From the IMG/VR virus record IMGVR_UViG_3300035698_016988, positions 1-64,000 of that record: a stretch of 64,000 nucleotides of DNA; one strand, 5' to 3'. This document shows, in pieces, positions 2,529 through 36,167 of this stretch (positions are counted from its first letter, which is position 1; each line of letters starts with the position of its first letter). The position numbers and the translations under genes are program-made. A model generated the notes under the pieces. It searched no databases and was not told where the DNA came from. It saw only the letters and a program-made list of their open reading frames with translations. The stretch comes from a virus.

Positions 2529-3149
2529 TTAAACCAACTGGTTTCGGAGCGAGTAAACAATTTCAATTTCTCTGTTAAGTGATTTCTGGATTGGGTGGAA
2601 AATAACATGCGTAATCAAGTTTCCTGAGTAGTCTTTCAACCCAATTTCATCGAATACAAAATTTCCTTCTGTAGACGACGCAGTATCAAAGTTATCCTGT
2701 CCTGAAGGCTCACCAAAATCTAATGTCGTTGTGATAACGATATCCGAAAACAAGTTACCCGAAACGTGACTAATTTCCATTTTATTATTCTCGGGATCAG
2801 AGTTTGAAATATTCTCATCATCAACTAATTTTGAATAAGTCGAATTATACAAATCCGCTGACTGGCCGATTGTGTTGGATGGAAGATAAGTAATTTCTCC
2901 AATTCCGTTTACAGTTGAGCCACCGTTTCCGTAGAAAATCTTTTCGATCTGACCATTCGACTTGTTTGCTAATGATCTAGCGACCGCAAGCGAATAGTTC
3001 TCAAAATGAATTGCGTTGTTCTTGTCTAAAATGACTTCTTTTGTGTTCTTGTCTCTAATCAAAAGATGACCAGTCACTTTAAGAGTAGCAATTTCGTTTG
3101 GTGCACGTTCCATATCTTCTGTGTCCTTTTTGTCAGAATCCTTGTTCAT
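2529..3149 (-). CDS. virion structural protein (baseplate wedge/collar-like)
   Basis: NAIH...FDEIGL...THVIFHPIQKSLNR pattern; structural operon context. Confidence 0.7.
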   Translation of the reverse strand: MNKDSDKKDTEDMERAPNEIATLKVTGHLLIRDKNTKEVILDKNNAIHFENYSLAVARSLANKSNGQIEKIFYGNGGSTVNGIGEITYLPSNTIGQSADLYNSTYSKLVDDENISNSDPENNKMEISHVSGNLFSDIVITTTLDFGEPSGQDNFDTASSTEGNFVFDEIGLKDYSGNLITHVIFHPIQKSLNREIEIVYSLRNQLV

Positions 3150-3154
3150 CTTAT

Positions 3155-6100
3155 TTATCTATTTCCCGGCGCTTCTTGAAGGAAGCGACTGATTACACTA
3201 TTGCTAGTTTGGATTTCGTCAGGAATGATTAGCTTGCCTTTATTTGGGCGGTTTTGGATACGAATCAAACTTCCAGTTGCTGGTTGTAAGCCAGAAACGA
3301 ATTTAATTTGTCTACCAAATACACTGTAATCAACGTTTCTGGTCTTTAACTCTTGCTTAGACCCAACAATTACCTTTCCTGAAGGATACGAGATACCGAC
3401 CGGAACGCCGATAAATGATCGAGTTAATTCTCCTAAGATATGAGCGCCAGTTTCGCTAGGATCATAATAACCAAATTCAATCTTTTCTTGATCGATCCAA
3501 AGAGCGCCGGTGTCACCTATTCTAGTTCCTTGTGCTTGTAATAGAGTCCCGTTTACAACCAAGATAGTAGATGCTACTGAAGAAGCAATGCCTAATTCAG
3601 TTAGTGCTGTTCCAACTAAGTTTGCAAGAGTAATTGCACCACCAACCAAGTTCACAATTTGTAGACGATCATCTTTATCTCTTGCAATAATGTTTTCAAT
3701 TCCAGCTGCATTGATATCAGCAACAACATTCGCCAACGCTGTCGAAGTAAATTCAACGCTCGTACCGTTAATCACAATACCTTCGCCGGATCCGAATGTA
3801 ACCACCGGAGTCGTTACCGTTCCTGTGGTTTGACCACCGAACAAGTCTTGAAGAGCATATCCAGAACTGTTCTCAATATTCAAAGCACCTCCGCCTGCGT
3901 GGCTGAATGTGATAATATCTGCTGCTACGCTAGCAGTGAGACCTCGATCAAATAATCCCGGTAACGCTTCAACATCAGTTTCAACCGACGCTGCATCCGT
4001 TCCGGTTAATGATAAGAACTCATATGCTCCACCGTTAAGTTGGATTCTAAGAACGTCCCCCGACTTTATCGATCCTGCTGGATTTGCGATATCCGTCGTC
4101 AATGTCGTAGGAGAAGGTAAAGTGAATACGCTTGAATCTTGCACAATGATGGTATCATCACTGATTTCTAGATCAGCTGCTAACTCTGTTGCTTCCCGGA
4201 CCCATACGCTAACTTCTGTTGGATCAGTAATTTCACCTAAGATGTTGTGAACAAAAATACCGGACTGTTGGGTTCTGTAATTGATACGTGATCTTTTTTC
4301 AACTTCTATCTTTTTAGGCATATCCTGTTTCGACGAAGCGTCAACTACTTTCGTTCCTGTAGAGTGGTTGAGACCCATACCGCCGTTTCCGTTTACACCC
4401 GGACGCAAACCGGTCAACAAGTGAGGAGAAACTGAATAATCAATTCCCCAGAATTCTATTAACTCGCCGTCGATATAAATTCTTCCCGGGATACGTTCAG
4501 CTGCCGGTACGGTTACCGGAGAAGGCTGACCCAATACGGCTGCGTCCTTTACCGAAATTGTCTGGTCAATTCCTGAGTCATATTCGCCAACCAATTCGGT
4601 GGTGTGTTTATCAGCGATGCGTTTAAACTCAAAATCTCCTCGTGGAGTTTTAATCATTCGGAACGCTGCTGGTCTCGAGGCTGATCTCTCGGTGGTGTAA
4701 GTAATTTGAATAACCGAGTTTAGATGACTAAGAGTATCATCTAAGAATTGAATTGTTCGGGTGTCTGCAAGTGAATCAACAATGTAAGAATAATCAATAC
4801 CTTCGAACTGAAGAACCCCGTCCATATAAACCCAAATATCACGAATAGTCGTCGGAACATTACCAATATCGTACGCTCGATTTGAATTTCCGTGGTAACA
4901 TTCATTACGCATTCCCATACTCAAATCTTCAGGTAATGTGATAATTCTCAAATCTGTCGGGTTGCTTGCTGTTAATGTATCGTTAGCGACCACTGTATCG
5001 CTTAGAACAAATTCTTCAGATCCAAATCCTAAGATAAAGATTTCGGCATTTAGACTCGGAATAGAGTTGAATATGATATCATTTCCAGAAACCGTATAAT
5101 CGTCACCAATACCCTCAGTTTGCAAAACTTGATTAAGATAGACTGCATAAGTTCCAGCAAAGGCCACCGGAGCTGAACTGGTATAGGTATCTTCACCTGC
5201 TTCAGCCAAATAAACCTTTGTATATGGCGCACGAAGTCTTTTACCGGTTGCTAAATCCCAAGCCTGAATTCCCATATAACCAGGAACAGTGCTTGTGGGT
5301 GGATTATCTAAGGTCGCTGTAATTGCGCTCGTTTCAATTTGTGATTGAACTTCGGTAAAGGTAATATCAGTAAAGACTGTGATAGCAACCGTTGCTCCTG
5401 CCGGAACGACCGGAGTATTGATAGTGACAATACTACCAGAAACAGACGTTGTTGCTACTTCTCCATTTACCGTAGCGAAAACATATCCGGGGTCAGTTAT
5501 AACGACTTCTAAATCAAACGCAGAAAGATTGGTATCATAAGTAATTAATCTTTTCTGGATAGGAGAGCCACCGAAACCGTAATGCATAAATGTCATTTTC
5601 GTTGTATCAACCGGCGGGGTTACCAAGGTAACTCTAGGATTGGTAATATGATCGTCTCTTTCTGACGTATCGTCATAAGTTGGATCATTCCAAGAAACAG
5701 TGTAATCGGTTGTTTCTCTGGTAATCAAACCATCTTCGAATACAAGAATTGCTTCAGACGATTGCGGAAGATAAGATAACTCATAAGTATCTGGAATTTC
5801 CGATTTGTAGAACTCTTCAGTTGACACGTCAGGACCACCACCAGTCGAAAGACTCAAATCTTCCTCAGCCAAATCGTAGCCTAGAGTATCATACGGAGAG
5901 TCATCATATCCGGGATCAGAACCTAGAACCTGCGCCTGGTTGGTGTAAACTCTAATCTCTAAGTTTTCTAAAACCCTAATAGGAGAAAGTTCTTGTGGGT
6001 GATTTCTATCCCAATGTGGTCTTAAGAATCCTTCACCTTCTAGGATGACATCTTCATCTCCTACGGTAGGATCCCAATCTTCGCCAGGGGCGTAAATTTT

Positions 6101-24023: not shown

Positions 24024-24893
24024 ATGGCACAAAAACGCGCCTATCTAAATAATCGAGACCTCTTAAAAGAAATTCATACATCAAAACGATCTTATTGTGC
24101 TTTCACGGACGAAGATTACTTTGACTATGACTTTATCGTTGATGACATTAATCGCATGAGTGATGCTCGTTGTCGTGAAGCAAGAAAAGCCAGAGCAGAA
24201 CGGTTAACCCAAATCGCTGTTCAGAAAATGATTGCAGAAGAAGGCATCTCAGCGAAAGCCGGTAACAAACGAGCCGACGAAGTTAGGGTTCACACTAGGA
24301 ATATTAATCTTGAAGACGTGGTTGTTCGTGAAATGACACATGAACACGTTCCGCAAGAAGAAAACAAGTCAGGCAAATTGGTTTATCCAAAGCTGAAATT
24401 CCCACCATTCAAACATTTTGCTTATATTGACGGCAAGTGGACTGAAGTTCTACGTTCCCATTGGGAAGGTGGATTCGACAACGGTTATTTCAAACAAGAC
24501 CAAGGCAGAGTAACTGACAAACTAGCAAAAATGATTATGATGCTGGTAGAAAGAATCAGTCACAAAGGAAACTACCGAGGGTATTCATTCATTAATGATA
24601 TGAGATCCGAAGCACTTGTTCATCTGTCTGATGTTGCCTTGAAGTTCGACGAATCAAAAGGCGACAACCCATTTGCTTTCTATACCACAATCATTAATCA
24701 CTCGTTCAAAGGATTTTTGAATTTTGAGAAGAAACAACGTACAATCAGAGATGACTTGATGATTGCTGGAGGATATTCTCCTTCGCATACAGCACAAGTC
24801 GAGCATGAAATGTCAATCCGTCTAGCTGATATTGATGAAGAAAACGAAAAAGCTTATCAAGAAAGACAAGATAAGGAGATGCAAAATAGGTGA
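24024..24893 (+). CDS. late-transcription sigma factor, T4 gp55-like
   Basis: YLNNRDLLKEI, NYRGYSFINDM and KFDESKGDNPFAFYT motifs; synteny with gp47/gp46. Confidence 0.88.
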   Translation: MAQKRAYLNNRDLLKEIHTSKRSYCAFTDEDYFDYDFIVDDINRMSDARCREARKARAERLTQIAVQKMIAEEGISAKAGNKRADEVRVHTRNINLEDVVVREMTHEHVPQEENKSGKLVYPKLKFPPFKHFAYIDGKWTEVLRSHWEGGFDNGYFKQDQGRVTDKLAKMIMMLVERISHKGNYRGYSFINDMRSEALVHLSDVALKFDESKGDNPFAFYTTIINHSFKGFLNFEKKQRTIRDDLMIAGGYSPSHTAQVEHEMSIRLADIDEENEKAYQERQDKEMQNR

Positions 24894-25912
24894 CTGAACA
24901 TTTATTTGAAAAAGCCGTAGCATTCACAGATATGCATCTGGGTCTGCGTAATAACTCGAGAGAACACAATAACGATTGTCAAGAATTTACAGAATGGATG
25001 ATTAAGGAAGCAAAAGCAAGAGGAATCAAGACTTGCTTTTTCTTAGGTGATTATCATCATGTTCGTTCTTCACTCAATATTTCAACTCTTTGTTACTCAA
25101 CCTTTCTTTTACGGATGCTATCCGATAATTTCGACGACGTTTATTTTATCGTTGGCAACCACGATATGTTCTACAAAGAAAAAAGAGAAATCAATTCAAT
25201 TGATTATGCCAAGGATATTCCGAATGTTCACTTGATTAATGAACCAGTTTGTATGGGCCAAGTTGGATTAGTTCCTTGGGTCTTAAAGGACGAATGGCAA
25301 AAGATTTGCAACATGGATGCAAAATATCTGTTCGGTCACTTTGAGTTTCCTTCATTCTTGTTGAACAGTAAAGTATTGATGCCCGACCACGGTCAATATC
25401 CAATCGGAGATTTGAAAAAGTTCGACTGGGTTTTCTCTGGTCACTTCCACAAAAGGCAAAGAAGACAGAACGTCCAGTACATGGGTAACTGCTTTCCGCA
25501 TGACTTTAGTGATGTGAACGAAGAAAAAGATCGAGGAATCATGTTTCTAGATTGGGACGGAAAGCCGGAGTTCAAAGCATGGCCGGGCACTCCTAAATAT
25601 CGATACGCAGGTATTGCAGATCTAATTGAACGACCAGATCAATACTTAGGCGATAAAACTTATGTTCGCGCTACACTTGACATAGACATTGATTTTGATG
25701 ACGCATCGTTTGTTCGAGAGACTTTGTCAAGTCTTTACAATCTTCGAGAGTTTACTTTCTTACCAAAGAAAAGAGAACAGGAAATCTTAGAAGTCGGAAA
25801 TGAAGATGTTGACTTTGAATCTGTTGATTCAGTAGTGATCGGACAATTACAAAACGTCGATTCGAATACATTTGATTCGAACCTTTTAATCTCAATTTAT
25901 CAGGCCCTATAA
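24890..25912 (+). CDS. recombination nuclease, T4 gp47/Mre11/SbcD-like
   Basis: DMHLG, GDYHH, GNHD and SGHFH metallophosphoesterase motifs. Confidence 0.93.
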   Translation: MTEHLFEKAVAFTDMHLGLRNNSREHNNDCQEFTEWMIKEAKARGIKTCFFLGDYHHVRSSLNISTLCYSTFLLRMLSDNFDDVYFIVGNHDMFYKEKREINSIDYAKDIPNVHLINEPVCMGQVGLVPWVLKDEWQKICNMDAKYLFGHFEFPSFLLNSKVLMPDHGQYPIGDLKKFDWVFSGHFHKRQRRQNVQYMGNCFPHDFSDVNEEKDRGIMFLDWDGKPEFKAWPGTPKYRYAGIADLIERPDQYLGDKTYVRATLDIDIDFDDASFVRETLSSLYNLREFTFLPKKREQEILEVGNEDVDFESVDSVVIGQLQNVDSNTFDSNLLISIYQAL

Positions 25913-27739
25913 ATGATTCAATTTGAAAAAATTATTCTAAAGAACTTTATGAGTTTCGGTAACGTACCGGAATCTATTCCGCTTGATCGTGATCCGTTGA
26001 CGTTGATCTTAGGAAGAAACCAAGACAAAGGTGAAGACTCAGGTGAAAGAAACGGTGTCGGTAAATCCAGTATCGTTATGGCGCTGCACTTTGCTTTGTT
26101 CGGTATTTCGGTTGGTAACAAAATTAAGAAGCCGAGGCTAATCAATAACATCAACCAAAAGAATCTTGAAGTAACTCTGAAGTTTACAATCGGAACGAAC
26201 TCTTACACGATTAAAAGATTCCGTAAACCAGAGAAGCTAGAGTTTTACGTCGACGATCACTTGGTAAATGACCAGGGCGGTGACGAAGGCCAAGGCGAGA
26301 TGGGAAAGACCCAAGAAGAAATCAATCGTGTAGTCGGCATCACTCCTGATATGTTTAACCAATCAATTTTCTTGTCAGTCATTACTGAGCCGTTCTTGCT
26401 ATTAGGATCCGGCAAGCAACGTGAATTGATCGAAGAACTTCTAGGAATTACTCAATTATCTGAGAAATCAACTACTCTCAAAGAAATGCTAAGAGAAACA
26501 AAGACTCAACTTGATAAAGAAACGTTCAAAATCAAAACAGTCGAAGAGACTAACGCCAGGGTTAGAACCAATCATGAAAAGTCAATTCAAAACTTGATGT
26601 CCAGAGAGACACGTTGGGAGAATGAGCATAGGTTCGAACTCGACGGGATTGAAAAAGAAATCGCTGAATACAGTGAGATCAGTATCAACCAAGAAATTAA
26701 AAATCACGAACTCCTAGCTGAATGGCTAGAAAAGAAAGTGGCACAAGATCAATTATTGTCTGAACTCGAAAGAACTAATATCGAAAAGGGTCGTCATGAT
26801 CGAGCAAAGCAACAAGCTTTCAAGCGTTTAGAAGATTTGGCAATTGATTTAGAATCAGCTGAAGAACAAAAATGCCCTACTTGTGGTCAGGACGTGCATG
26901 ACGATAAACACGATTCTGTCCTTGGCGGCATCGTTGAAAAAGTTGAGTTTTACGAAAAGCAACTCAGAGAAGAAGACGATAACCTGGCACAAATTGAGGA
27001 ACGCTTACAAGAACTAAGCGAACTAGAATTTGACCTAGGTAAAAAACCTGAGGTATTCTATACCGAAGTTAAGGATGCATACAAACACAAAAGTACGCTG
27101 AAATCTTTAAAAGATGGATTGAAATCTGAGAAATCAAAAACCAATCCTTACTCTGAGCAAATTGCTTCCCAACCAGATGCACCGTTGCAGGATATCAATT
27201 ATGAATTAAAGGATGATCTCATTCAACTTAGAGACCACCAAGAATTCCTTTACAAACTCTTAACCAGCAAAGACTCATCAGTTCGAAAACATATTATTAA
27301 CCAGAACATCAGTTACTTGAATGCTCGCTTAGGTATGTATCTCGAGAAACTAGGGTTGCCACATGAGGTTGAATTCTTGAATGACCTCAGCACTGAAATC
27401 ACAATGCTCGGTAATCAATATGACTTCTTGAGTCTATCTGCGGGTGAGCGGGCACGCTTGACTTTGGGACTTATTTTTGCTTTCCGTGATGTTTGGGAAT
27501 CACTAAATCAAACAATGAACATCTTCTTTGTTGACGAATTTCTCGACACGGGGTTAGATACAGCGGGTGTAGAATCCGCGCTTAAGACCTTGAAACAATT
27601 GGGTCGAGAACGCGCAAAGAACATTTTTATCATATCACACCGTGAAGAGTTAATTTCAAGATGTTCAAATGTATTAACGATTGTAAAAGAAGGCGGCTTC
27701 AGTCAACTCGAATGGCAAAGAGACGAGGAAGAAGTATGA
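25913..27739 (+). CDS. recombination ATPase, T4 gp46/Rad50/SbcC-like
   Basis: Walker A NGVGKS, zinc hook CPTC, signature LSAGE, Walker B FFVDE, ISH. Confidence 0.95.
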   Translation: MIQFEKIILKNFMSFGNVPESIPLDRDPLTLILGRNQDKGEDSGERNGVGKSSIVMALHFALFGISVGNKIKKPRLINNINQKNLEVTLKFTIGTNSYTIKRFRKPEKLEFYVDDHLVNDQGGDEGQGEMGKTQEEINRVVGITPDMFNQSIFLSVITEPFLLLGSGKQRELIEELLGITQLSEKSTTLKEMLRETKTQLDKETFKIKTVEETNARVRTNHEKSIQNLMSRETRWENEHRFELDGIEKEIAEYSEISINQEIKNHELLAEWLEKKVAQDQLLSELERTNIEKGRHDRAKQQAFKRLEDLAIDLESAEEQKCPTCGQDVHDDKHDSVLGGIVEKVEFYEKQLREEDDNLAQIEERLQELSELEFDLGKKPEVFYTEVKDAYKHKSTLKSLKDGLKSEKSKTNPYSEQIASQPDAPLQDINYELKDDLIQLRDHQEFLYKLLTSKDSSVRKHIINQNISYLNARLGMYLEKLGLPHEVEFLNDLSTEITMLGNQYDFLSLSAGERARLTLGLIFAFRDVWESLNQTMNIFFVDEFLDTGLDTAGVESALKTLKQLGRERAKNIFIISHREELISRCSNVLTIVKEGGFSQLEWQRDEEEV

Positions 27740-27747
27740 CAGAAAAA

Positions 27748-27930
27748 TCAGTCTTCCTGATACCACTTGATCAATTCCGAAACTGCCATTCCGGCAGCAA
27801 CTTCTGTACCTAAACGCATGGCGGCCTTCTCTCGAAGTTCACCTTCTGTGAGCCCATCCACCAGATCGAGTCCGTCTCTGACTGGTTGGGTTACGACGTC
27901 GATCGCCGAGCTTAAAAATTTATCAAACAT
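27748..27930 (-). CDS. small hypothetical protein (MFDKFLSS..., 60 aa)
   Basis: ORF; ATG at 27930 preferred over the track's TTG, which lies inside a TTGACA box. Confidence 0.55.
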   Translation of the reverse strand: MFDKFLSSAIDVVTQPVRDGLDLVDGLTEGELREKAAMRLGTEVAAGMAVSELIKWYQED

Positions 27931-28035
27931 ATCTTTATTTAACACCTTGTCAAACTTTGTCAAGAATATTATTGATCAGATGAATGTACGGTGTTAGGAT
28001 TATAATAAGAAAAACACAAAACTAAAGGAGTTTAA

Positions 28036-28143
28036 ATGATTTTATTCGACGAAGAAGTTAGAGCAGAACTTATTGAATGCGGTTACAATCCCGATGATGA
28101 TGAAGATGTATTGGCCTGGGCGGAAGATTTACTAGAAGGTTAA
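28036..28143 (+). CDS. 35-aa highly acidic microprotein (not in ORF track)
   Basis: AAGGAG SD; MILFDEEVRAELIECGYNPDDDEDVLAWAEDLLEG; promoter-like sequence upstream. Confidence 0.7.
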   Translation: MILFDEEVRAELIECGYNPDDDEDVLAWAEDLLEG

Positions 28144-28146
28144 TGC

Positions 28147-28197
28147 TTGACTCCTGTTCAACTCGGTGTTACTTTAAGTGACACTGAGGAACAGGAG
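28147..28197 (+). promoter_or_regulatory. sigma70 promoter embedded in an SD-sequestering hairpin
   Basis: TTGACT-N17-TACTTT; inverted repeat 28151-28197 pairs with the AGGAG SD. Confidence 0.6.
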
Positions 28198-28203
28198 TTT
28201 TCA

Positions 28204-28565
28204 ATGCAAACATATTCCCAAGATCAAATCAACAATTTTCGTGCTTACCTGTCTTATAAGTAAACAGTCCGCACTTCCCTCATCATGTTTTTGCTAAAAT
28301 CAAAATCCCAACCTGCCCGACCATTAAAACTGCAAGTGATGCTATTGCGCTACTTTCCCAAAATGCAGTAGTCGATGCTTTTAATTCTTATCTAACGTAT
28401 ATGAACTTCGGTTCAAAAATTCAAGATCAACTCTTAAATCTGACCGTTAATCAGTTACAAGCAAAACGCTTAATCGCAAAACGGGACGTCGAGCCGATCA
28501 CAATCGAGCAGTTCTTAATTGAACGAGCAAAGCCTTCACCACAAAGCCTTCGCCACAAAGCCTAA
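28204..28565 (+). pseudogene. frameshifted hypothetical gene (about 119 aa if repaired)
   Basis: MQTYSQDQINNFRAYLSYK* continues in the -1 frame as VNSPHF...; internal repeat FRAYLSY(V)N / FNSYLTYMN. Confidence 0.6.
28528..28563 (+). repeat. 14-bp tandem repeat, about 2.5 copies
   Basis: CAAAGCCTTC(A/G)CCA x2 plus CAAAGCCT. Confidence 0.75.
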
Positions 28566-28568
28566 AAC

Positions 28569-28604
28569 AAAAAGCGCGGAATGTTAATTCGTTACGCGCT
28601 TTTT
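28569..28604. terminator. bidirectional intrinsic terminator
   Basis: AAAAAGCGCG...CGCGCTTTTT between convergent genes. Confidence 0.7.
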
Positions 28605-28621
28605 CCTTGTCTAAAAATGGA

Positions 28622-29131
28622 TTAAATCTTTTTCTTGTAAAGTTTGACCAATTCTTTTTTGGTCTCTTTTCCAGAAAGTTCTATATTATTATGTTCAAGG
28701 AGGATCGTTATTTGGTCCTCCTTTTTCATATTCTTAAATTTGGTAACTTTTTTATTCTTATGTGCTGGATGTTCGTAATCAGTTTGATTAGATTTGAGAT
28801 AAGATAAATGATCTTCCAGCCATCCAATATAATCAGTTTCTAGGCTCACGTGCCCAGATCGTCTAAAACGATAAAATAAAATTCCTTCCAATAAATTGCA
28901 TCTTCTGCACAAAACCCCACGGACTAAACCCGAATCGTGATTGTGGTCAACGTGGCGGTTCGTATTATCTTCAGTCAATAAATCTTCAGAGCAAATGCCG
29001 CATTTATAATCTTGTGCGACGAGCAACTCATCACGAATTCTTGCGATATCTTTTGATTTAAGAATTGTAACCAAGGGATCTCCATTTGAATTAATGTCAG
29101 GTAATGCCACAAGTGACCCATCTCCCAGCAA
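28622..29131 (-). CDS. endonuclease VII-like Holliday junction resolvase (T4 gp49-like)
   Basis: QDYKCGIC...VDHNHDSGLVRGVLCRRCNLLEG; true start probably slightly downstream. Confidence 0.88.
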   Translation of the reverse strand: MLGDGSLVALPDINSNGDPLVTILKSKDIARIRDELLVAQDYKCGICSEDLLTEDNTNRHVDHNHDSGLVRGVLCRRCNLLEGILFYRFRRSGHVSLETDYIGWLEDHLSYLKSNQTDYEHPAHKNKKVTKFKNMKKEDQITILLEHNNIELSGKETKKELVKLYKKKI

Positions 29132-29203: not shown

Positions 29204-30082
29204 ATGAGCGAGATCAGGCTAAAGAATGCCCTTTCACAAATGAAAAACGAAGCTGTTTCGGAACGTAAAAATCATATCCGAAAGCATCGAAATCAACAAG
29301 GTGAGGCATGGTCAGTTGAATGCCAACTGGCTGACCCGCAAGACGCCAGACGAATGAACGGATTCATGCAACATGAATTGGATCTATATAATCAAATCCT
29401 AGAATATTTCAACCCAACTGCAAGAACTGCTCCAGAGATCTTCTCGGCTTTTACCGAAGAGCATATCAATTTGTTTGCATTCTTAGCACAGCACGGTATC
29501 GATATTCGAAGAATACGAAAAAGCAATCTACCAGATGTTATGAAAGAATTCGAAACGATTCTATTCGACGGTTCTATTAGTGAAAGAATGAAAATCCTAA
29601 TGGAATCAGTAGGCGGATCTTATTCGATGCTTGAATCAACCAAGAAAGCAATGGCTCGTGAGCTAATGAAATTCTATGCTGAGGACGCAAGAGTACGTCA
29701 GCAAAGAATGCCAAAAGGCGGTGACCAAGAATTTAAAACCCCACCTAAGTCTTTGGCACAGCAAACCCCAATCAGCAAGCGTCACTTGCAGATGAAAAGA
29801 GACCAAGTCAAAATCAAATTCAACGAAAAAGAAGACCGTTCGGAAATTTCGATCCCTTATTGTTCTTCACCGATTTACGTGAAAGAAGTTGATCTATCAG
29901 ATCGTAATTCTTGGAATATTATGATCGTTCACCAAACACCAAATGTAATGGTCCTACCAGGATCACCTTGGGTTTTAGACTTCAGGGGCATCAAGAACGA
30001 TTACTTGGTTGATTATTTAGACAACCGTAACGATAAGTCAGGAGTATTCTGGCATGCCAAATCAAACAGGAGTGGAAGATAA
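29204..30082 (+). CDS. hypothetical protein, candidate RuvC-less TnpB/Cas12f-like (WED+REC) nucleic-acid-binding protein
   Basis: The gene itself is solid (CAGGAG SD, late promoter). The homology rests only on visual pattern similarity (...LYNQILE..., ...ISIPY..PIYVK...). Confidence 0.45.
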   Translation: MSEIRLKNALSQMKNEAVSERKNHIRKHRNQQGEAWSVECQLADPQDARRMNGFMQHELDLYNQILEYFNPTARTAPEIFSAFTEEHINLFAFLAQHGIDIRRIRKSNLPDVMKEFETILFDGSISERMKILMESVGGSYSMLESTKKAMARELMKFYAEDARVRQQRMPKGGDQEFKTPPKSLAQQTPISKRHLQMKRDQVKIKFNEKEDRSEISIPYCSSPIYVKEVDLSDRNSWNIMIVHQTPNVMVLPGSPWVLDFRGIKNDYLVDYLDNRNDKSGVFWHAKSNRSGR

Positions 30083-30203
30083 TGTCACAACTTTTAGAAA
30101 CTTGCTTTTGCTTAGTGCAGGCCTAGTAATGAATCCAAATAACGGAAATATGGTTATTATTTTCTTAACTCGATATTCGGAAGAGCCAACGGACGCCGAA
30201 TAA
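30054..30203 (+). CDS. possible 49-aa ORF overlapping the 3' end of the upstream gene
   Basis: AGGAG 9 nt before the ATG; MPNQTGVEDNVTTFRNLLLLSAG... Confidence 0.25.
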   Translation: MPNQTGVEDNVTTFRNLLLLSAGLVMNPNNGNMVIIFLTRYSEEPTDAE

Positions 30204-30208
30204 TCTTA

Positions 30209-30237
30209 TTGACGCTCGCAGTTTAGATATATAGTAT
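30209..30237 (+). promoter_or_regulatory. sigma70-type promoter facing the non-coding region
   Basis: TTGACG-N17-TAGTAT. Confidence 0.65.
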
Positions 30238-30243
30238 CAGATA

Positions 30244-30960
30244 GTTAGAACATAGTGACTCAGATATGGTGGTATACCACCGACGGAAGGGATGCCTAGG
30301 TATCAGGAACGTCGTAAAACCCGCGTCACACGGGACCGCAATGAAAACTTCCAGGAAGAGGCACCATCCGAACTGGGACAGACGGCGGAATATTTACATG
30401 CACTCAATGAATCGGCGAGGTATGTGATAAGGATTAAGATTTTAATCTGAAATAGGTCGCGGATGCTGATGGCATCTTTGAAAATGAAGAACCATATCCA
30501 AAAATTAGAAGGCACAAATTAGGCACAACACTACCATAGGCAAAAAAATCAGGTGAAATGAATACCGCAAGGCACAAATCAGGGCGACGACCCGTAGGCA
30601 CAAGGATTTGGATCATGCTCTGTCTCGAGACACTGACAACATGAACTCCGTTAGAAACTTTGAAGGTATGAAGTAATAACGGACGCCGGTTTTGGCTTAG
30701 CCACAAAACCTAGAGCGATAGGCGGGATTCGGAAACCCCTCGTTTGTATAAACTCTACATACCCTGACCATACGATGTACCATACGGAAATCGTCCTTTT
30801 GCCCTATTTCCAGTTACTTGGAGGCGGGGGCAAAAGGACTGGACTCACCCAACGGAATGTGTCTTGTTCAAGCCTCATCCAATAGACTAATATGACTTGA
30901 AATGGTTTTAATGATGTTTCTAGAAAAAGTTACCAATGAAAACTGTTAGGTTTTCATTAG
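30244..30960 (+). ncRNA. putative large structured non-coding RNA of unknown family
   Basis: No + strand ORF of 60 aa or more; own promoter; many hairpins including a 12-bp stem 30793-30804/30828-30839; AGGCACAA repeats. Ends are approximate. Confidence 0.62.
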
Positions 30961-31013
30961 ATCTTTAGATCTTAGATAATTGTTATATTGTTTCACACTT
31001 GGAATCTTTGCGA

Positions 31014-31223
31014 CTATCGTGAGGCTTTCTTCATTGCTCTATGATATTCTTCGTAGGCATCAACCATTGATTGTCTATCTTCTCTGGTAGAGAGCCACAA
31101 TTCTGTCCAACCAATTCGGCCTTCCATATACATCATTATCTGGCTAATCTCTGACCGGATAGCTTTTGCCTCATCTTCGATTTCAGTGAGGAAACCGGAA
31201 ATTCCCTCATCGTCTAGGAGCAA
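31014..31223 (-). CDS. C-terminal extension of the hub/tail-assembly chaperone, probably made by -1 frameshift
   Basis: TTG start without SD; the frame is open back to the slippery heptamer at 31235-31241. Confidence 0.7.
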   Translation of the reverse strand: MLLDDEGISGFLTEIEDEAKAIRSEISQIMMYMEGRIGWTELWLSTREDRQSMVDAYEEYHRAMKKASR

Positions 31224-31228
31224 AAGCT

Positions 31229-32071
31229 TTAGTCGAAAAAATTTGAGGGATCAAATGTTAAATTTTCTTCGACATATTCATGTTGACAATGAGTACAAAC
31301 ACAATTCTGTGAATTCGGAACGCCGGCTTCATTAAGGCTTTTGATTTTAAATCGGATATTGTCTACTTCTTTTGTATCAAGTTCTTTGACCATAGGTTCA
31401 ATATGTTTTCTTTCTTTAACGAAAATTCCGTCAGGGGTTTGAACTCCCATTACTGAATCACAAACCAACTCGAAGTTCATCTTAACCATTTTGTCAAAAC
31501 TATTTGCAAAAGTTCTAATCTTTTCTTCGTCGGCCATTTCTTCTCGGTCGACTAATTGCATAATTTTTGTTTGTTCGAACTGAGCTAGGTTTGACTTTGT
31601 GCTGGTCTTAAAATCGTGCGGTTTCATTACCAAAGTCAAACCGTTTGATAATTCGATAGAGTTTTCGTCATCTAAGAAAGTCATTGTATCGATAGCCATT
31701 CGAATTGATCGGTCAAATTCGTTTATTTCATTACATTCAGGGCAAGTTGATTTAAAATCAATTGTATCTCCGTAAGACGCAAATCTAATTGCTAGCATCA
31801 AAGCGGTTACATCAGGAACAACCAACATTGAAGGATCTCCTTTAATTCCCGGAACACATGATTTGATAACGTCCAACATTCCTTGACCGTTTAGCAAGGC
31901 GTCTGGGCTTTTTAATGAAAGGTCATCAGATGCGGTCATAGCCTTAATATCGAGTTCATCGTTATTATTCAATTCCAAAAAGTTCGGAGGATAGAATAAT
32001 CCTCTTGAAGGTAAAGGAATTGAAATTTTAGTCTGGCGACCATAACCGGCGAGTGGATTTGCTGTCTGTGA
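31229..32071 (-). CDS. baseplate hub assembly / tail chaperone (T4 gp26/gp51-like)
   Basis: NPL...LPSRG.FY, MTASDD..LKSPDALLNG, CPEC and CTHC zinc motifs, NFF terminus; start placed at MSQTANPL. Confidence 0.8.
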   Translation of the reverse strand, partial: SQTANPLAGYGRQTKISIPLPSRGLFYPPNFLELNNNDELDIKAMTASDDLSLKSPDALLNGQGMLDVIKSCVPGIKGDPSMLVVPDVTALMLAIRFASYGDTIDFKSTCPECNEINEFDRSIRMAIDTMTFLDDENSIELSNGLTLVMKPHDFKTSTKSNLAQFEQTKIMQLVDREEMADEEKIRTFANSFDKMVKMNFELVCDSVMGVQTPDGIFVKERKHIEPMVKELDTKEVDNIRFKIKSLNEAGVPNSQNCVCTHCQHEYVEENLTFDPSNFFD

Positions 32072-32127
32072 CATCGGGTTCTCCAAATTGGTAAATAAAA
32101 CTACTAGACTTATTTATTCGAGGAATC

Positions 32128-34418: not shown

Positions 34419-36167
34419 ATGGCATCATGGAAACGTCACTATCGTTTAGCTTCAAAAGAAGCTAGAATGAATTTATACCGAAATAAGGATGATGCAGGGT
34501 ATGAACCAACCGGTTCTTCTAAAAATTACCAGTCTTTCCTTCCAGAGGTATATGCAGGTTTTCCAAACAGAATAGACCGTTTCCGTCAATATGATATGAT
34601 GGAAAATGATCCAGAGATTAACGCGGCTATGGATATCTTAACAGATTTCTGTACTCAGAATAATGACGACGACGGCGGCAACCCTTTCCGTATTGAGTTT
34701 GGTAACGATACTCCGGATACGGTTATTGAAACTATTCAATCAATTCTCAAGGGCTGGGTGAAACTTAATAACTTGGACAGAAGAATTTTTGATATTGTTC
34801 GTTCAACTTTGAAGTTTGGTGACTATTTCTTTGTTAGAGACCCGGAAACATTCGAACTATACCCAGCGAACCCGTATAATATCGAAAAGGTTGTGGTTGA
34901 TGAATCCCGAGGAAAAGAAATTGAGCAATACTTCATTAAAAACTTGGAGTTAAACCTTCAAGGGCAAGTAGCAACTGCTGCAGTTGCTACAACCAATAAC
35001 TATGCAATTTCCGGAACAGCAGCTACTACCAACCTAACCGGTAGTCAAGGAACGACAGGTGGCGGCACTAACTCACAAATGGGTGGGTCGGCGTCAAGTA
35101 GATTTGCTAACAATCCACAATCGTTTGCTGTTGGGGCTGAAAACGTCGTCCATGTTTCTATGAACGCAGGCGACGATCCTAACTGGCCATTCGGTACTTC
35201 TGTTCTTGAGGCGATTTACAAAACCTACAAGCAGAAAGAATTGCTAGAAGATGCGATTATCATTTACCGTATTCAACGTGCACCGGAAAGACGAGTATTT
35301 AAAATCGACGTTGGAAACTTACCGCATCACAAAGCTATGGCTTTTGTTGAACGTATGAAAAACGAAATGCACCAGAGAAGAATCCCAACAAGGGACGGAT
35401 CTGGATCTAATAGTTTTTCACTTATGGACACAGCATATAACCCGATGTCGATCCTAGAAGATTTTTATCTTCCAGTTACTGCAGACGGTCGTGGTTCTGA
35501 TATTACCACGTTGCCTGGTGGTGAGTCACTCGGTCAAATTGATGACTTGAGATTCTGGAACAATAAACTAATCAGAGGTTTGAAAATTCCTAGCTCGTAT
35601 CTTCCGTTTGGTCCAGATGACGGAGCGCAGACATTTAATGATGGTAGACTAGGTCAAGTATTTGTTCAGGAAATTAGGTTCGCAAAGTATTGCCAGAGAC
35701 TGCAGAATAACTTTGCTCCAACTTTTGACGCTGAATTTAAAAAGTTCTTAGAATACAAAGGCTACAATATCGACATCACTGATTTTGAAGTTCGTTTCAA
35801 TAAACCGATGAACTTTGCAATCTGGACTAAGATCGAAATGATGAACTCTTCGATTAGTCTTTACACTCAGATGGCTGACCGCCCAGAGATTTCTACTCGT
35901 TTGGCTATGGAAGAATTCTTGCAGTGGGATGATGAAATTATTGCTAGAAACGCTAGAATGTGGAGAGAAGAAAACCCAACAAAACTCAAGGGTGTAGCTT
36001 CACTTGTAGCAGATGATGACATGGCAGACGGAGCACCGGGACTACAATCGGTTGGTGTTGGTTTGCCGGGCGAAGATGAAGACTTCGGAAATGAGGAAGG
36101 TTTAGACAGTCCGTTAGGTGGCGAAGATGAAGACACTGAGGACGATAACGATGAGGAAACGATCTAA
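34419..36167 (+). CDS. portal protein, T4 gp20-like
   Basis: LLEDAIIIYRIQRAPERRVFKIDVGNLP and EDFYLP...GRGSDITTLPGG motifs. Confidence 0.96.
   Translation: MASWKRHYRLASKEARMNLYRNKDDAGYEPTGSSKNYQSFLPEVYAGFPNRIDRFRQYDMMENDPEINAAMDILTDFCTQNNDDDGGNPFRIEFGNDTPDTVIETIQSILKGWVKLNNLDRRIFDIVRSTLKFGDYFFVRDPETFELYPANPYNIEKVVVDESRGKEIEQYFIKNLELNLQGQVATAAVATTNNYAISGTAATTNLTGSQGTTGGGTNSQMGGSASSRFANNPQSFAVGAENVVHVSMNAGDDPNWPFGTSVLEAIYKTYKQKELLEDAIIIYRIQRAPERRVFKIDVGNLPHHKAMAFVERMKNEMHQRRIPTRDGSGSNSFSLMDTAYNPMSILEDFYLPVTADGRGSDITTLPGGESLGQIDDLRFWNNKLIRGLKIPSSYLPFGPDDGAQTFNDGRLGQVFVQEIRFAKYCQRLQNNFAPTFDAEFKKFLEYKGYNIDITDFEVRFNKPMNFAIWTKIEMMNSSISLYTQMADRPEISTRLAMEEFLQWDDEIIARNARMWREENPTKLKGVASLVADDDMADGAPGLQSVGVGLPGEDEDFGNEEGLDSPLGGEDEDTEDDNDEETI

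Follow-up and report, generated by a model that had tools for sequence, protein, structure and literature searches.

A predicted large structured RNA beside the gene for a putative nuclease-less TnpB derivative in jumbo phages

The DNA analysed here, a stretch of 64,000 nucleotides that we call the window, very probably encodes on its + strand a real structured RNA that is absent from the RNA catalogues. The RNA starts 161 nt past the stop codon of a gene on the same strand, and the 292-aa product of that gene is, judging from its predicted structure, a TnpB/Cas12f descendant keeping only the WED and REC domains. With moderate confidence, we favour the reading that the RNA is an omega-RNA-like partner of this nuclease-less TnpB derivative (hereafter half-TnpB) and that RNA and protein work together.

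It covers the initial 64 kb of an IMG/VR virus record that is 74.6 kb long and has an estimated completeness of ~20%. Family annotation of the window proteins identified T4-type core genes, and the genes relevant here are as follows.

24024-24893: late sigma factor (core gene)
24890-27739: SbcD- and SbcC-like recombination nucleases (core genes)
28622-29131, - strand: endonuclease VII (core gene)
29204-30082, + strand: 292-aa protein, resembling the WED+REC half of TnpB/Cas12f by predicted-structure comparison
31229-32086, - strand: T4_baseplate hub protein (core gene)
34419-36167: gp20-type portal (core gene)

Among named phages, the closest are PA5oct-, GAP32- and Phosso-type jumbo phages, whose hub protein is only ~35% identical. 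DNA nearly identical to the window was found in salt-lake and lake-water metagenome runs. In four DNA runs, the pieces were of low coverage and matched the window at 99% identity or more; their sole informative variant was an extra A behind position 30541. No RNA run was listed among those containing this DNA.

Gene-free tract and consensus fold

The tract 30209-30960 had been described as free of genes, and the stop-to-stop frames across 30150-31010 were indeed junk-like and reached at most 91 aa. Reading TAG as Q or TGA as W opened no convincing frame in 30209-30960. It is also the longest gene-free tract in the window when tracts without any plausible ORF are counted; a second tract of similar length (27740-28621, ~880 nt without long ORFs), located between the SbcC-like gene and endonuclease VII, contains several ORFs of 35-76 aa.

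Homologous DNA was reached by alignment-based and pattern scans. The full-length RNA alignment comprised three sequences: the window, an 18.9-kb IMG/VR contig (L003, equal to L004 and L015), and a 4-kb JGI contig (L013). A partial copy lies on a 137-kb contig (L002/L009) from a strain almost identical to L013 in the overlap, where the contig end cuts the RNA. The two flanking proteins have a handful of metagenome relatives at 54-64% identity, and the window, L003, and L013 share the order endonuclease, half-TnpB gene, RNA, baseplate hub. L003 and the window agree at 73% of positions across 653 nt of non-coding tract, and at 68% and 66% in the flanking genes. The RNA alignment consists of invariant runs of 12-20 bases between variable, indel-rich stretches, with no codon periodicity and no ORF conserved across the three homologues. 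No nucleotide match to the RNA region was found among GenBank phages. A pattern built on the single-stranded tail ACUCACCCAACGGAA retrieved RNA homologues. Among 13 metagenome matches to the 3' pattern, ten were chance matches in an unrelated coding gene, and the pattern TCAGGTGAANNGAATACCG gave four IMG/VR matches, all unrelated. The features of the locus are listed below.

30209-30237, + strand: sigma70-type promoter, with TTGACG (-35, 30209-30214), a 17-nt spacer, and TAGTAT (-10, 30232-30237); probable start near 30243
30243-30860, + strand: conserved RNA core, ~620 nt, 23 consensus helices
30255-30334, + strand: 5' pseudoknot formed between 30255-30259 and loop 30325-30329 in hairpin 30320-30334; both stems covary
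30282-30313, + strand: invariant hairpin with a symmetric 5x5 all-purine internal loop (GAAGG / AGGAA), in three homologues
30510-30602, + strand: five AGGCAMA motifs in a length-variable stretch, predicted unpaired
30793-30839, + strand: long 3' hairpin of 12-19 bp (helix 23), with G-U changes and one compensated pair
30843-30857, + strand: single-stranded tail ACUCACCCAACGGAA, the last conserved scaffold block (predicted unpaired)
30858-30934, + strand: variable 3' tail, unalignable, differing in length among relatives
30935-30958, no strand assigned: terminator-like hairpin, possibly bidirectional, with a terminator score on the - strand
30959-30972, no strand assigned: palindrome AGATCTTTAGATCT, occurring once in the window and kept in L003, L013, and L002

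The promoter, noted in the preliminary description, is present, and its hexamers are kept in L003 (TTGACA/TAGTAT) and L013 (TTGACT/TAATAT) around a diverging spacer. A ~78-nt tandem duplication in L013 (880-1060, - strand) includes the entire RNA promoter and places two promoters in series. At the other end, the hairpin proposed at 30935-30958 keeps its position in L003 and L013 and has a different sequence in each.

The consensus obtained with RNAalifold from the three full-length sequences contained 137 pairs in 23 helices, with a consensus energy of -135.5 kcal/mol. Standard pairs occupied 94.6% of the pair cells, and 41 of the 137 pairs had changed on both sides (compensated pairs). Column shuffles gave a mean of 16 compensated pairs, with 41 reached in none of 500, and sliding the 3' partners gave 4-11. 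The helices were picked by one structure-prediction program from three sequences, and a coding-DNA control was run because such a program chooses helices fitting the data. This control, taken from the same loci at similar divergence, yielded 23-25 apparent compensations at -38 to -40 kcal/mol. The covariation called for in the preliminary description is seen, the 41 compensated pairs exceeding the shuffled, slid, and coding controls. The helices contain 58 G-U cells, and identical helices on the - strand are just 81.8% paired, versus 94.6% on the + strand. This G-U asymmetry, together with the promoter, identifies the + strand as the RNA strand.

Folding energy, the other check that had been proposed, came close to failing. 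The 752-nt tract had minimum free energy z values of -2.4 (+ strand) and -2.2 (- strand) with 20 shuffles, and the exact cores of the three homologues had values of -0.9, -2.3, and -0.5 with 60 shuffles. As these values are modest (-0.5 to -2.4), the case for a structured RNA rests on covariation.

Most of the stems predicted earlier recur in the three-sequence consensus, namely GGTGG/CCACC, CGACG/CGTCG, GATGC/GCATC, TCCGTTA/TAACGGA, and the 12-bp stem at 30793-30839. The stem GGTTTTGGC/GCCACAAAACC is ambiguous, as part of it is used by another helix in the consensus. The suspected pseudoknot between GTGAC (30255-30259) and GTCAC (30325-30329) is borne out by compensation in four of its five pairs. 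Its hairpin (30320-30334) also covaries: the three sequences have GC, CG, and UA at pair 74-82, and CG, GC, and GC at pair 73-83. The long 3' hairpin was additionally found in the partial copy L002/L009. The repeat AACGGACGCCG does occur at 30188 and 30678; it is not conserved in the relatives and is therefore probably due to chance.

The loops of the hairpin at 30282-30313 are invariant in all three homologues. In L026 and L027, two further loci described below, neither nhmmer nor a covariance model built on the 5' domain (R1) detected a homologue, and in L022 and L023 these searches matched nothing but a 30-nt hairpin module. This purine-loop hairpin recurs letter for letter, loop excepted, at 2673-2702 of both L022 (Terasakiella pusilla DSM 6293 scaffold 55) and L023 (MAG Gammaproteobacteria HF-Dia14), contigs that are 91% identical over 2.1 kb. 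In L022, the module sits in an 800-nt gene-free tract (2620-3420), which may represent another large non-coding RNA sharing the module. The L022 contig carries integrase-like and invertase/resolvase-like genes and has no TnpB-like gene.

Comparison with the Rfam 15 covariance models, counting scores at or above the gathering threshold, gave no match in the entire window. GOLLD, ROOL, OLE, HEARO, RNase P, tmRNA, group I/II introns, and omega-RNA-type motifs all stayed below this threshold. With the cut-off relaxed to E 10, three chance-level matches (E 0.5-7) fell within 29900-31300, none of them inside the core 30243-30860. The homologous loci, including the subgroups A and B introduced below, likewise had no Rfam match except an unrelated tRNA. 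No tRNA or tmRNA was found in 30209-30960, in agreement with the preliminary description. Conservation, covariation, the G-U asymmetry, and the lack of an Rfam match together support its proposal of a large structured non-coding RNA outside the catalogued families. The RNA is large as proposed, with a conserved core of ~620 nt rather than the ~700 nt first estimated.

The comparison with GOLLD, ROOL, and OLE that had been drawn holds for the size class and for nothing beyond it. GOLLD and ROOL occur in phage genomes, and GOLLD, ROOL, and OLE were for a long time without a protein handle. Along with raiA, these RNAs resemble the window RNA in size class and in their ornate multi-helix fold. The window RNA differs in having no covariance-model match to any of them, no adjacent tRNA genes, and a constant protein-gene partner.

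Predicted structure of the 292-aa protein

The 292-aa protein had no match in Pfam or PHROG. Its AF2 models, built from 7 sequences (pLDDT 70.5) and 64 sequences (pLDDT 90.2), both showed a beta-barrel broken by a helical bundle. In Foldseek searches, the best 29 rows for the 7-sequence model and the best 21 for the 64-sequence model were all Cas12f, Cas12k, Cas12g, TnpB, and related chains, at probabilities of up to 0.99 with weak E-values of ~3e-3. VIA-align, as an independent comparison with representative structures, gave Z scores of 10.5-10.0 over 163-172 residues to AsCas12f (Z 10.5, rmsd 3.9, 168 residues), dCas12f, RhCas12f, ISDra2 TnpB (Z 10.1), and Fanzor2. The top 29 rows, down to Z 5.0, were all Cas12, TnpB, or Fanzor chains, and the first unrelated structure followed at Z 4.8. 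The first (7-sequence) model gave the same picture in structural alignment.

The aligned part of the Cas12/TnpB chains is N-terminal (residues ~1-210) and corresponds to WED plus REC; the model shows an N-terminal WED domain with an inserted helical REC domain. The structural alignment stops at model residue 264, equivalent to TnpB residue ~174, before RuvC. The 28 residues that remain form a short, conserved, low-confidence C-terminus. Structural alignment and family lengths indicate that the C-terminal RuvC domain with its D-E-D triad is absent, and Pfam detected no zinc-finger/TNB domain in the protein. A profile search of PDB sequences gave nothing; the link to TnpB is visible by fold comparison only.

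A profile search of 1.84 billion representatives placed 192 clusters in the protein family. Since the best 150 of the 192 clusters are all 110-345 aa, the short form is the family norm and not a truncation. The family is present in one copy in each of five jumbo-phage records. OrfB_IS605 (PF01385) and Cas12f1-like_TNB (PF07282) were found nowhere in five related records, including three that are at least 90% complete (417-465 kb) and carry the family; as a positive control, the same searches found the domains in 8 of 14 control genomes. Neither the 292-aa protein nor two distant family members had a protein match among GenBank phages, and single-protein scans of IMG/VR returned nothing.

Pairing of gene and RNA across loci

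Two IMG/VR scans with family alignments added 35 further loci, mostly on contigs of 30-465 kb. Of 21 non-redundant family loci, 19 have a tract of 540-1780 nt behind the gene in which no ORF reaches 130 aa; this tract usually extends to the convergent baseplate-hub gene. The remaining two (L053 and L057) have no long non-coding tract adjoining the gene.

Two subgroups, whose proteins are ~28% identical to that of the window, could be aligned internally: subgroup A (L027, L030, L033, L034) and subgroup B (L029, L031, L032, L035). The downstream region of subgroup A folded into 153 pairs, 38 of them compensated, at -146 kcal/mol (coding control: 12 compensated, -57 kcal/mol), and that of subgroup B into 177 pairs, 49 compensated, at -174 kcal/mol (coding control: 18, -74 kcal/mol). 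These covarying RNAs of ~700-850 nt are not detected by the 5'-domain covariance model of the window RNA. From the alignments, each subgroup appears to have its own large structured RNA in the same place, and a single homologous RNA family is a candidate only.

In subgroups A and B, the conserved region begins directly after the stop codon and a hairpin. This arrangement, and the conserved palindromes that flank the region, could suit something other than an RNA gene: conserved regulatory DNA, the remains of a gene, or an extended 3' UTR belonging to the upstream mRNA. We regard these readings as highly improbable: neither a pseudogene nor DNA bound by proteins would be expected to show pair-keeping compensatory changes, many invariant G-U pairs on a single strand, and a dedicated conserved promoter, and no reading frame is conserved. 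The palindrome AGATCTNTAGATCT is conserved 3' of the RNA hairpin in the window group (window 30959-30972). A related, almost invariant block, AGATCGATCTCAGATGTAGCTGAATCG, follows a hairpin just upstream of the subgroup A and B RNAs, within the first ~60 nt past the protein gene (L027:3801-3828 and L029-L035). Both blocks are candidate phage-specific promoter or regulator sites.

Several neighbouring genes were observed at these loci. A 117-aa Tad2-like (Thoeris anti-defence 2) gene (L003:7795-8148, - strand; Pfam E 8.5e-27) is located between the half-TnpB gene and the RNA promoter in L003. A 51-aa piece with the same C-terminus as this protein occurs at L013:1008-1163, and a decayed Tad2-like remnant, overlapping a 49-aa ORF, at window 30054-30203. 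An RNase H gene (PF00075 / RVT_3; L027:5242-5622) lies shortly downstream of the subgroup A RNA, a neighbour that would be of interest if the RNA-protein particle forms R-loops. No half-TnpB family member was found in the region of Pseudomonas phage PA5oct that is syntenic to the locus. Between its resolvase and baseplate hub (NC_071039.1 ~75700-77180; L028:6529-8041) lies ~1.5 kb with only four annotated ORFs of 38-50 aa, which may hide an unannotated RNA.

The gene and the RNA do not form one tight unit, since the RNA has its own promoter and the Tad2-like gene intervenes in L003. Both facts suit a stand-alone large structured RNA in the size range of GOLLD, ROOL, and OLE, for which adjacency would reflect conserved core gene order only; the two family loci with no adjacent tract also suit it, as does the fact that the entire region, from the recombination genes through the baseplate hub, is a syntenic core. 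Under this reading, it would be surprising that the pairing persists to ~28% protein identity even though the RNAs diverge beyond recognition, and that the known members of the protein fold all act via a bound structured RNA. We consider a stand-alone RNA unlikely and prefer a functional partnership with the half-TnpB protein.

Possible functions and relation to known systems

The WED and REC domains are the parts of TnpB that grip its guide-RNA scaffold, TAM duplex, and RNA-DNA heteroduplex. The WED+REC fold of the 292-aa protein matches, at Z 10.1-10.5, the N-terminal halves of IS200/IS605 TnpB, which acts with an omega-RNA (reRNA), for instance ISDra2 TnpB (PDB 8H1J, 8EXA), and of miniature Cas12f with its sgRNA (8DZJ, 7C7L). 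As in these systems, the gene has a pseudoknotted, structured RNA encoded shortly behind it on its own strand. Unlike them, the half-TnpB locus lacks RuvC, the TNB zinc finger, transposon ends, and TnpA, and its RNA has its own promoter, no overlap with the gene, and no Rfam model match. At ~620 nt versus roughly 100-250 nt for omega-RNA and sgRNA, it is 3-6 times longer than known omega-RNAs. A same-strand, pseudoknotted scaffold 3' of an effector gene is present with a promoter of its own, which is a resemblance and not proof of homology. The guide RNAs of TnpB and TldR likewise have a scaffold pseudoknot (PMC13622181).

Because the fold is conserved, the gene is adjacent, and only the nucleic-acid-gripping half of TnpB is kept, RNA and protein probably form a nuclease-free RNA-protein machine. 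The host RNA polymerase would transcribe the RNA early and rightward from its sigma70-type promoter, and the half-TnpB protein would bind the scaffold through the pseudoknot, the purine-loop hairpin, the long 3' hairpin, and the single-stranded tail. The oversized RNA might replace the structural mass of the missing protein half. The resulting particle could recognise a nucleic-acid target and leave it uncut, for instance by binding DNA under RNA guidance to control genes, or by forming an R-loop. In this model, we infer the protein-RNA binding, the existence of a guide, and the target.

That the RNA guides DNA binding together with the half-TnpB protein is a tentative proposal, to which we give distinctly less weight than to the partnership. 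The variable tail (30858-30934) follows the last conserved block and, by sequence, is a candidate guide region or simply the RNA end. Target searches in phage DNA were negative: the tail had neither another copy nor a complement within the 74.6 kb of this genome, the initial 20 nt of a relative's tail matched nowhere else in its 137-kb record, and a subgroup B RNA matched its complete 465-kb genome no better than chance. Unlike TnpB and Cas12f, the window locus yielded neither a guide nor a TAM.

TnpB is the ancestor of all Cas12 enzymes. TldR and dCas12f are domesticated nuclease-dead TnpB offshoots that were recently shown to be natural RNA-guided transcription factors. Like the half-TnpB family, they derive from TnpB/Cas12f lineages domesticated without cleavage and are single-copy and not mobile. 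The RNA-guided transcription factors of this kind include TldR and dCas12f-sigmaE, and some TldRs are phage-encoded (PMC10705468; PMC13622181; PMC13472631). TldR and dCas12f retain a RuvC that is degenerate or shortened at its C-terminus and through which the guide RNA is still bound (PMC13622181; PMC13472631), whereas in the half-TnpB protein RuvC is absent altogether and not inactivated. Their scaffolds are ~100 nt long, with guides of 9-16 nt and known promoter targets (PMC10705468; PMC13622181; PMC13472631); the window scaffold is about six times larger. Given that TldR and dCas12f keep an RNA-contacting RuvC and ~100-nt scaffolds, half-TnpB would be a distinct, more extreme derivative. 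No published description of a half-TnpB protein with a large RNA was found in the literature.

The AGGCAMA motifs bear on a different possibility. Five lie within 93 nt on one strand, compared with 18 in the remaining window on both strands, and arrays of this type also occur in L003 and L013. The extra A behind 30541, seen in contigs X5 and X8 from two runs, falls in the A-run of the third repeat and is a natural length variant. Four AGGCAMA / TAGGCAC copies at L026:3908-3975 lie directly past the protein stop codon and not inside the RNA. The spacing of AGGCAMA / TAGGCAC is often 9-12 nt, about one helical turn, within a length-variable stretch. Such spacing would suit sites for a protein on either DNA or RNA and keeps alive the reading as an origin or operator.

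As a replication origin, the locus would produce a promoter-driven folded primer RNA that forms an R-loop, as do ColE1 RNA II and the T4 oriF/oriG transcripts; the array would provide iteron-like protein sites, and the half-TnpB protein might aid R-loop formation. ColE1 RNA II and the oriF/oriG transcripts act in cis through an R-loop, and they resemble the window RNA as promoter-driven folded RNAs of ~0.5-0.6 kb from a non-coding tract. The adjoining recombination and resolvase genes, the RNase H gene after the RNA in L027, and the hairpin module shared with a gene-free tract beside integrase-like and invertase/resolvase-like genes are compatible with an origin. Against it, 23 covarying helices and long invariant single strands exceed the needs of known primer transcripts, no AT-rich unwinding element was identified at the locus, and no skew switch occurs there, though gene orientation dominates the skew in this DNA. 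To our knowledge, these primer transcripts have no pseudoknotted, deeply covarying scaffold and no TnpB-like partner. We judge an origin improbable, and the RNA-protein partnership remains our preferred explanation.

A more far-reaching version of the partnership is tentative. In an RNA-dominated particle, an RNA of 600-850 nt would have taken over most of the TnpB-type architecture, and perhaps the chemistry, as part of the core of an uncultivated lineage of 300-465-kb phages. Such a particle would serve neither the homing of a transposon nor a CRISPR-like defence; it could form R-loops programmably, in the service of phage replication or transcription.

If the partnership is real, a lineage that dropped the entire nuclease half and kept a large, strongly conserved RNA in the giant-phage core genome would extend the TldR/dCas12f series to an extreme, with the smallest protein and the largest RNA, and would raise the question of what a WED-REC module does with RNA alone. 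It would add a new class of large structured RNA that has a protein handle for pull-down and cryo-EM. A protein of 290 aa would also be attractive for compact targeting tools, should the particle bind DNA programmably.
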